Below are positions 30,614 through 30,720 of a DNA stretch of 64,000 nt, in pieces (the stretch's first letter is position 1; the number at the start of each line of letters is the position of its first letter). The stretch covers positions 1,653,865 through 1,717,864 of the forward strand of contig OZ255828.1 of the NCBI GenBank assembly GCA_965277585.1, read 5' to 3'. The translations under genes were made by a program, and so were the position numbers. A model generated the notes under the pieces. It searched no databases. It was not told where the DNA came from and saw nothing but the letters and a program-made list of their open reading frames with translations. The stretch comes from Roseivirga sp. GTDB lineage: Bacteria; Bacteroidota; Bacteroidia; Cytophagales; Cyclobacteriaceae.

Positions 30614-30720
30614 GCATTTGTAGCTCTCCCGATAGCTATCGGGAGCGCAGAGCACCTGGCTTTAAACCTGCCTGCGGCAGGCAGGCCAGGGGATTGGGGG
30701 TTCGAATCCCCCTGAATGCA
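30614..30720 (+). tRNA. 107-nt tRNA-like element with two palindromic inserts; anticodon loop CTTTAAA (UUA, would read UAA)
   Basis: Acceptor GCATTTG/TGAATGC (5 Watson-Crick pairs + 2 G-U); D stem GCTC...GAGC encloses a 23-nt loop containing the perfect palindrome CTCCCGATAG/CTATCGGGAG; anticodon stem CCTGG...CCAGG encloses CTTTAAA plus the 19-nt hairpin CCTGCCTGCGGCAGGCAGG; T arm GGGGG-TTCGAAT-CCCCC; discriminator A. Confidence 0.3.

Follow-up and report, generated by a model that had tools for sequence, protein, structure and literature searches.

A 107-nucleotide (nt) tRNA-like unit lies at positions 30614-30720 of the window, by which we mean the whole 64,000-nt stretch of Roseivirga sp. 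contig OZ255828.1 that was analysed. We conclude that this unit is probably a non-decoding accessory tRNA mimic that descends from a Lys(UUU)-type unit, belongs to an array of structured RNAs at an SPFH/RtcB operon, and carries two selfish mini-palindromes. The array is linked to an RNA-repair operon for SPFH/Band-7, TPR, RtcB and phosphatase proteins in Roseivirga and in many other Bacteroidota. A first-pass annotation, made from the sequence alone, had offered three options for the unit, namely a disrupted suppressor-like tRNA with an ochre-reading UUA anticodon, a tRNA that needs an unusual processing or splicing step, or a tRNA mimic. A mimic or otherwise disrupted tRNA is the option supported by the array context, the fold and the orthologs described below, and the unit reveals neither new stop-codon decoding nor a bacterial tRNA-splicing pathway.

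The Rfam tRNA model (RF00005) yields a full-length match to exactly 30614-30720 on the plus strand (43.2 bits, where the gathering score is 29; E = 7.5e-6 for the window). Two stretches are left out of its alignment, one of 23 nt in the D loop and one of 20 nt on the 3ʹ side of the anticodon loop, and these regions hold the two inserts. The acceptor, D, anticodon and T elements and the discriminator A that had been recognized by inspection are all present where they had been placed:

30614-30720, plus strand: tRNA-like unit of 107 nt, probably derived from a Lys(UUU)-type unit, without an encoded CCA
30614-30620 and 30713-30719, plus strand: acceptor stem GCATTTG/TGAATGC, with five Watson-Crick pairs and two G-U pairs
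within 30614-30720, plus strand: D stem GCTC/GAGC, read from the sequence
30627-30644, unstranded: insert 1 (P1), the perfect 18-nt palindrome TCCCGATAGCTATCGGGA in the D loop, where it replaces about 4 nt
30655-30666, plus strand: 5ʹ strand of the anticodon stem (CCTGG, pairing with CCAGG) and loop CTTTAAA, with the apparent anticodon UUA
30667-30685, unstranded: insert 2 (P2), the near-perfect 19-nt palindrome CCTGCCTGCGGCAGGCAGG, after position 38 and before the 3ʹ strand of the anticodon stem
30696-30712, plus strand: T arm GGGGG-TTCGAAT-CCCCC with a canonical T loop, assigned by the Rfam tRNA model and the fold
30720, plus strand: discriminator A, read from the sequence

Insert 2 is the 19-nt hairpin that the first-pass annotation had described between the anticodon loop and the 3ʹ stem strand. 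Insert 1 is likewise a perfect palindrome in the D loop, but the module that recurs elsewhere is the 18-mer given above, and the 20-nt sequence quoted originally takes in one tRNA base on each side. In length the unit is extreme, since all 63 tRNA-model matches in 14 related loci measure 62-93 nt. The program ARAGORN makes no call of the unit, either with default settings or with its intron option. When ARAGORN was relaxed to -ps85 or -ps88 it returned a wrong ‘Phe aaa’ parse at about 30634-30721, and the unit was never correctly recovered.

Folding the unit with and without its inserts, as the annotation had proposed, gives two different pictures. The insert-free 70-mer adopts the cloverleaf as its minimum-free-energy (MFE) structure (-28.6 kcal/mol). 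The intact 107-mer has an MFE of -54.5 kcal/mol (z = -4.8) and keeps only the acceptor stem and the T arm of the cloverleaf. Its D arm becomes a hairpin of 2+8 base pairs (bp), and its anticodon arm becomes an 8 bp stem that continues through a UAAA/C internal loop into a hairpin of 6 bp. In both the MFE and the centroid folds, C47, U48 and U49 of the anticodon loop pair with G72, G71 and A70. Because U48 and U49 belong to the apparent UUA anticodon, no free 7-nt anticodon loop remains. The D loop of the window copy consists of P1 plus GCGCA and holds no unpaired GG.

With the SPFH protein encoded downstream of the unit as the anchor, we assembled 52 related loci, of which 31 come from genomes and 21 from metagenomes (L-numbered below). 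Orthologs of the unit were recognized in three of them, two by sequence search and the third by eye, in arrays that are mosaic between relatives:

L005, 9039-9113: insert-free ortholog of 75 nt, loop CTTTTAA, anticodon UUU, 57.6 bits with the tRNA model
L001, approximately 9028-9281: ortholog without P1 and P2, acceptor GCATTTG as in the window, loop TTTTTGC, anticodon UUU
L051 (SPFH protein 73% identical), approximately 4084-4193: ortholog with both inserts, at the same positions as in the window, loop CTTTTAA, anticodon UUU

The anticodon is thus UUU (Lys) in three of three orthologs, and among the four sequences UUA is found in the window copy alone. At least eight stem pairs carry double-sided changes that keep the pairing. 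These changes involve acceptor pairs 1, 2 and 7 and T-stem pairs 1-4, as well as the anticodon stem, which in L051 is compensated to CCCGG/CCGGG. Such a pattern indicates that the cloverleaf core has been under selection, and the tRNA-like core is, to judge from the alignment of these four sequences, maintained by compensatory change. The D loop reads CAATTGTGCA in L005 and AATAGCGCA in L001, neither of which contains an unpaired GG. An unpaired GG at the G18G19 position is absent from all four D loops of the unit family, and therefore the insert-free versions are atypical tRNAs as well.

Both inserts recur outside the unit, in loops of diverse origin. P1 occurs once in the window. The identical 18-mer is present in the D loop of a UAU unit (L005), in the D loop of a GUU unit (L051), in the hairpin loop of a non-tRNA element that we call X (L031 and L032), and, again in L031, in a T loop belonging to a duplicated 3ʹ fragment of a tRNA; L031 accordingly holds P1 twice. 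Slightly diverged P1 copies occupy a D-loop-like site in L025 and one site in L021. P2, written in general form as CCTGCCTGC-S-GCAGGCAGG, has three copies in the window (30052, 30143 and 30667), all of which lie inside the array, compared with 0.01 expected by chance. Additional P2 copies are found in L031, L003, L004, L025 and, in part, L001; the L025 copy is in a good GAA unit, in its D loop, and the element X loops of L031 and L032 carry P1 and P2 together. The orientation of P2 varies between sites, and two of the window copies have a C-A mismatch on the transcribed strand, which favours a DNA-level element over a selected RNA hairpin.

Filled and empty orthologous sites can be compared in four pairs for P1 and in one for P2, the latter in the unit at 30614-30720 itself. 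From these comparisons, P1 replaces 3-4 nt of the loop (AACA, AATA, GTT, GAG or AGCC). For example, L001 carries AATA where the window unit carries P1.

The viral sequences of the IMG/VR collection were searched for the same palindromes, with composition-matched palindromes as controls. Exact P1 was found at 53 sites in 46 stretches (L053-L098), against 2 and 0 for two control palindromes, and P2 was found in 6 stretches against 0 for its control. As many as five P1 sites occur per contig, some with half-site duplications (L058, L084, L089). The viral sites are mostly intergenic, with 10 of the 53 falling in long stop-free stretches compared with 88% of random positions. Several are located at the tips of terminator hairpins (L072, L077, L097) or are nested in other palindromes. 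None of the P1-bearing viral contigs encodes SPFH or RtcB. About a quarter of them (roughly 12) have Mu-like portal, capsid and terminase genes in common, and these were the only genes returned by a search for a mobilizing enzyme shared across the 46 stretches. P1 with its flanks had no match in isolate phage or plasmid collections. A tRNA-like context of P1 in viral L056 and L076 proved ambiguous, because the Rfam model took a P1 arm as the acceptor, and was left unused.

Recurrence across unrelated loops and in viral intergenic DNA means that the inserts behave like very small dispersed palindromic repeats. The first-pass annotation had itself raised the contrary possibility that the inserts are a miniature inverted-repeat transposable element that landed in a dead tRNA gene, and the homologous loci, with their dispersed palindromes and their filled and empty sites, come close to this picture. 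A bolder proposal, which we find on balance doubtful, is that P1 and P2 are undescribed ultra-small (18-19 nt) palindromic mobile elements of Bacteroidota and Mu-like phages that replace the terminal loops of existing hairpins, with the tRNA-mimic arrays of SPFH/RtcB loci serving as a preferred landing ground or as exploiters of the hairpins. If this is true, the target loops would include tRNA D, T and anticodon loops, terminator loops and the loops of other structured RNAs. In a wilder version of the proposal, loop replacement may take place at the RNA level, through loop cleavage and ligation of the hairpin by RtcB, and then be copied back into DNA.

Other roles for the palindromes were considered as well. 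No U tract follows the P1 and P2 hairpins, and they were rejected as terminators. A function as operators is unlikely given the copies that lie inside terminator and tRNA loops. L031 had suggested that small GIY-YIG nuclease elements leave P1 behind as a footprint, an idea that was abandoned because no GIY-YIG homolog is found near any other P1 copy. In the L031 region concerned (1960-2440), a tRNA (anticodon CAU) is followed by an inserted small gene for a GIY-YIG nuclease (2083-2376), and the tRNA 3ʹ end and terminator are duplicated. The duplicated tRNA fragment is the one that carries P1, in place of AGCC in its T loop.

Several observations weigh against the reading of the unit as a tRNA mimic with two selfish inserts. 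The filled and empty P1 sites show no target-site duplication, and no shared mobilizing enzyme (transposase or nuclease) and no RAYT-like gene was found with P1 or P2. The mimic function would follow from genomic context and from compensatory changes among only four sequences. In addition, the unit is missing from several close relatives (L031, L011, L002 and L020), the L001 ortholog is split by a 161-nt repeat, and the D and T stems of the L051 ortholog are broken or degenerate, and such absence, splitting and stem damage are equally compatible with a pseudogene. A pure pseudogene is therefore the main rival, in which a supernumerary tRNA-Lys gene of a horizontally acquired array was inactivated by the two mini-palindromes and has no function. 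Consistent with this rival, the 161-nt repeat (L001 9080-9247) sits at the junction of the variable loop and T stem and has duplicated a 7-bp target (GGTTAAA), the unit escapes ARAGORN, and 3 of the 26 genes of the Anabaena L-array are pseudogenes (PMC8421152). However, double-sided compensatory changes separate the orthologs in the acceptor, anticodon and T stems, the window copy retains all four stems and a very stable fold, and two lineages have kept the insert-bearing form although their SPFH proteins share only 73% identity. We judge a plain pseudogene to be unlikely, while holding that the unit can be dispensed with and may be decaying.

Two further explanations give the hairpins a purpose. 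One is that they are selected functional modules, such as binding handles for SPFH, TPR or another partner, that were grafted onto the loops of array RNAs. The arm sequences of P1 and P2 are indeed conserved across families with a variable central loop (L025, L021), their copies within SPFH loci are concentrated in the arrays, and they always lie in loops and leave the host fold unbroken. This explanation nonetheless appears quite improbable, in view of the exact P1 copies scattered through the intergenic DNA of viral contigs that lack SPFH and RtcB, the two orientations and C-A mismatches of P2, the decay without compensation of the L051 copies, and the existence of orthologous units without either palindrome (L005, L001). 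The other explanation, an intron-containing ochre-suppressor tRNA whose hairpins are excised and whose halves are joined by the nearby RtcB so that the mature tRNA reads UAA, is one to which we give almost no credence. Archaeal tRNAs can carry multiple short introns at non-canonical positions, and these are spliced by EndA and RtcB. The window unit resembles such tRNAs in having short inserts in the D loop and anticodon region and RtcB in the genome; its insert-free sequence folds as a cloverleaf and its loop reads CUUUAAA. Unlike them, it belongs to a bacterium and has no bulge-helix-bulge, forming instead a 4-nt/1-nt internal loop plus hairpin where 3-nt bulges around a 4-bp helix would be required. 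Neither insert is at the canonical 37/38 position, since insert 2 follows position 38, and exact removal of P1 leaves a 5-nt D loop without G18G19. The Rfam scan found no intron family, and a splicing endonuclease was not detected among the genes within about 15 kb. Two orthologs lack the inserts. The same hairpins are moreover present in viral intergenic DNA and in loops of elements other than tRNAs, which means that the inserts are not tRNA introns. Suppression of UAA is further opposed by the UUU anticodon of all three orthologs, by the partial base pairing of UUA, and by the frequency of TAA, which serves more often than any other stop codon in the window (in 21 of 51 long open reading frames (ORFs)) and also ends rtcB itself. 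A ‘Stop(tta)’ call made by ARAGORN in L022 turned out to be an AT-rich terminator and not a second UUA unit. As for the link to RtcB that the annotation had put forward as speculative, the neighbourhood is a conserved one, and it matches a published RNA-repair context rather than splicing.

For a non-decoding mimic with selfish inserts, the following course of events can be proposed. An ancestral Lys(UUU)-type unit would have taken up two dispersed palindromes, with P1 replacing about 4 nt of the D loop and P2 entering at the 3ʹ edge of the anticodon loop. Because such insertions extend existing hairpins, the half of the molecule formed by the acceptor and T arm would have been left intact, whereas the D and anticodon arms would have been turned into rods and part of the former anticodon buried. 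UUA would then be a single-base variant (U36 to A) of the ancestral UUU, in a loop freed from decoding. The array is presumably transcribed, possibly together with the operon, and RNase P and RNase Z, which mainly read the acceptor/T-arm half, could release the individual units. The mimics might serve the repair module as a cofactor, a substrate surrogate or a decoy for tRNA-cutting toxins, as has been proposed for b7a-tRNA, YrlA and L-array tRNAs (see below).

The array that surrounds the unit comprises about 9-10 tRNA-like units, among them five matches above the Rfam tRNA cut-off and about four weaker units, together with other structured elements:

30040-31100 (approximately), plus strand: array of tRNA-like and other structured units
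30095-30182, plus strand: UAU unit, weak
30211-30282, plus strand: Asp-like GUC unit, 61.7 bits with the Rfam tRNA model
30284-30400, plus strand: element X, not a tRNA
30450-30533, plus strand: Tyr-like GUA unit, 42.5 bits with the Rfam tRNA model
30537-30607, plus strand: CUU unit, called by ARAGORN only
30725-30870, plus strand: element Y, directly 3ʹ of the unit at 30614-30720
30877-31011, plus strand: permuted YrlA-like modules with a GUU unit, tRNA-model matches at 30877-30940 and 30944-31006

Two of these components are conserved structured elements. Element X is kept in 13 SPFH loci and has no Rfam match. Element Y is the most widely conserved piece of the array, with an nhmmer match in 19 of about 50 SPFH loci, including those of Chlorobiota, Spirosoma and Saprospiraceae. 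RNAalifold predicts for element Y two helices and an invariant GGTTCGAATCC T arm, and 15 of its 23 pairs show double-sided compensatory changes. It also contains a conserved CCUGAUGAG motif and belongs to no Rfam family; element Y may be the actual conserved non-coding RNA associated with SPFH. Farther downstream, the region from about 30830 to 31011 has a permuted order, in which a T arm is followed by a hairpin-closed acceptor (CTACCCC-loop-GGGGTAG, then CTCCCTTTTAAGGAG) and then by a D arm. The Rfam YrlA model (RF02553) scores 38.5 bits on 30888-30992, which is below its gathering score of 69, and a weak match to permuted tmRNA is seen at 30833-30885.

The unit is separated by 730 nt from the start of the SPFH gene, which is on the same strand, and by 3.4 kb from the RtcB gene farther downstream. 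The genes of the operon are as follows:

31451-32551, plus strand: SPFH/Band-7 gene, first after the array (Pfam Band_7, E = 1.3e-33)
between the SPFH and TPR genes, ending at 33147, plus strand: gene for a 168-amino-acid (aa) protein without a family match
33132-33689, plus strand: TPR-repeat gene of 185 aa, between SPFH and RtcB (Pfam TPR families)
34108-35583, plus strand: RtcB RNA ligase gene (Pfam RtcB, E = 1e-79)
among the genes downstream of the array, plus strand: gene for a transglutaminase-like protein
36634-37212, plus strand: gene of the cysteine/tyrosine-phosphatase family (Pfam Y_phosphatase3, E = 1.3e-22)

The closest SPFH loci are those of Roseivirga metagenome-assembled genomes (MAGs), with 93-94% SPFH identity, and others come from Flavobacteriaceae, Crocinitomicaceae, Saprospiraceae, Spirosoma and one Chlorobiota MAG. 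Genes for tRNAs or tRNA-like RNAs precede SPFH in most loci, with up to 13-14 in a row. For about 20 of the 31 loci from genomes, the retrieved region also encodes an RtcB homolog. All Roseivirgaceae-like loci have the array followed by SPFH, (168 aa), TPR and RtcB in this order, and across them the TPR protein is 49-82% identical. The phosphatase gene is conserved in L001, L002, L005, L006 and L020, and its product may modify RNA ends as part of the operon. No Ro60/TROVE, RtcA, RtcR or splicing endonuclease was found among the genes at 14-47 kb of the window. The PADLOC defence models matched none of the operon proteins, and no close SPFH relatives were found in viral contigs. Genes within 15 kb on either side of the array and operon are ordinary chromosomal ones.

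The anticodons of the arrays in the 31 genome loci are mostly GUA, GUC, UUG, GUU, UAG, UUC and UUU. Colicin E5, PrrC, zymocin-type toxins and other anticodon nucleases classically target many of these, and the repertoire would fit a decoy role. Asp-like GUC units (window 30211-30282, L005 8710-8781, L051 3737-3808 and L025 7731-7801) share a non-canonical anticodon loop, CUGUCUA with U37, across families. This shared loop suggests that the array tRNAs form a lineage distinct from housekeeping tRNA-Asp.

Three published systems offer the nearest parallels to the array. A tRNA-like non-coding RNA found beside Band-7 and RtcB genes, termed b7a-tRNA (from ‘band-7-associated tRNA’), was predicted by Burroughs and Aravind (2016) and is experimentally unvalidated according to the summary in bioRxiv 10.1101/312249. 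Rfam contains no family for it. As far as that summary describes b7a-tRNA, the window unit corresponds to it in adjoining SPFH (31451) and RtcB (34108) genes on the same strand and in its strong resemblance to tRNA, since the tRNA-model score of 43.2 bits exceeds the gathering score despite two inserts. It departs from the summarized description in that a whole array is present here in place of one unit, that the window unit is variable, accessory and interrupted by two palindromes, and that the most conserved piece of the window array is element Y rather than the unit at 30614-30720. The second parallel is YrlA (RF02553), a tRNA mimic of an RtcB operon in which the acceptor, T and D arms are mimicked and a long stem takes the place of the anticodon arm (Chen et al. 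2014, PMC4201824). The neighbouring modules at 30888-30992 are permuted like YrlA and have the 38.5-bit match noted above, although this is below the gathering score of that model. The unit at 30614-30720 is not permuted and does not match the YrlA model, and the TROVE domain of the Ro60 protein (gene rsr) beside which YrlA is found was not detected among the genes at 14-47 kb of the window. The third parallel is provided by long, horizontally spread tRNA arrays that are co-regulated with rtcB and whose operonic tRNAs were suggested to be sponges for toxin RNases (Santamaria-Gomez et al. 2021, PMC8421152). These L-arrays, as described there, consist of supernumerary operonic tRNAs that are patchy in distribution, linked to rtcB and in part pseudogenes. 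The window array has the rtcB link in common with them and would resemble them in the other respects, and the loci related to the window reach 13-14 tRNA genes. Unlike the L-arrays in that description, the window array is short, partly degenerate, mixed with non-tRNA structured elements and physically fused to the SPFH-RtcB operon. Targeted searches of the same paper turned up no palindrome-interrupted units.

The palindromes have parallels of their own among dispersed repeats: they are palindromic (18-19 nt), scattered and mostly intergenic, they nest in other hairpins, they vary between relatives, and structural RNA genes tolerate them. One comparison is with the very small dispersed repeats (SDRs) of cyanobacteria, reportedly described by Elhai and colleagues in 2008. 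Others are with the dispersed palindromic REP/REPIN elements (PMC3116915) and with the selfish short palindromes inside the L8 rRNA module of Volvox mitochondria (PMC2670323). P1 and P2 differ from all of these in their hosts, which are Bacteroidota and Mu-like viral contigs, in the replacement by P1 of 3-4 loop nt without duplication, and in that no RAYT-like or other mobilizing gene was found for them.

The unit thus supplies a concrete, sequence-level example of the predicted and unvalidated tRNA-like partners of SPFH/Band-7 and RtcB repair operons. In Bacteroidota these partners are fast-evolving arrays in which near-canonical tRNAs occur beside permuted modules of YrlA-like type and two or more conserved structured RNAs without an Rfam 15 match. 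Two tiny palindromes found repeatedly in the hairpin loops of RNA genes are possible objects of study as mobile elements. Moreover, palindrome-bearing units resemble intron-bearing or suppressor tRNAs, and P1 and P2 therefore matter for tRNA gene annotation. Further interest attaches to these loop-occupying mini-palindromes and to the conserved elements X and Y.

Additional features were noted at the edges of the array. Two intrinsic terminators (29805-29834 and 29996-30029) lie 5ʹ of it, and both are preceded by a Bacteroidota-type promoter motif with TTTG at 29641 and TACATTTG at 29666. The region 29880-30034 is kept in 12 loci, and 29641-30034 may represent a small RNA or an attenuator-type leader ahead of the array. 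Inside the array, the only plus-strand matches to the terminator consensus are the element X hairpin and one T arm, and from 31012 to the SPFH gene no plus-strand terminator-like site was found that had the necessary T run. Within the operon, the start of the TPR gene overlaps the end of the 168-aa ORF (33147) by 16 nt. A 221-aa minus-strand ORF at 33108-33773 is probably an artefact, the conserved gene being the overlapping plus-strand TPR ORF of 185 aa.

Other small rearrangements were encountered in the related loci. The 161-nt repeat family that splits the L001 ortholog has further copies at L001 16581-16766 and L051 7231-7383, and the former holds a nested P2-like hairpin. At L051 4158-4180 the 5ʹ strand of the T stem has been replaced, and GATTCGAA-T-TTCGAATC forms a new local perfect palindrome with the look of an inverted duplication that arose in situ, by template switch, at the T loop. 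The L005 array has at its 5ʹ edge (about 8395-8480) a tandem repeat with a unit of about 28 nt (GGAGGTGTCCGCAGGACGGAGGGGTTT). It is preceded by CTCCCC-loop-GGGGAG hairpins that resemble the flanks of viral P1 copies and of the P2 copy at 30040-30070.

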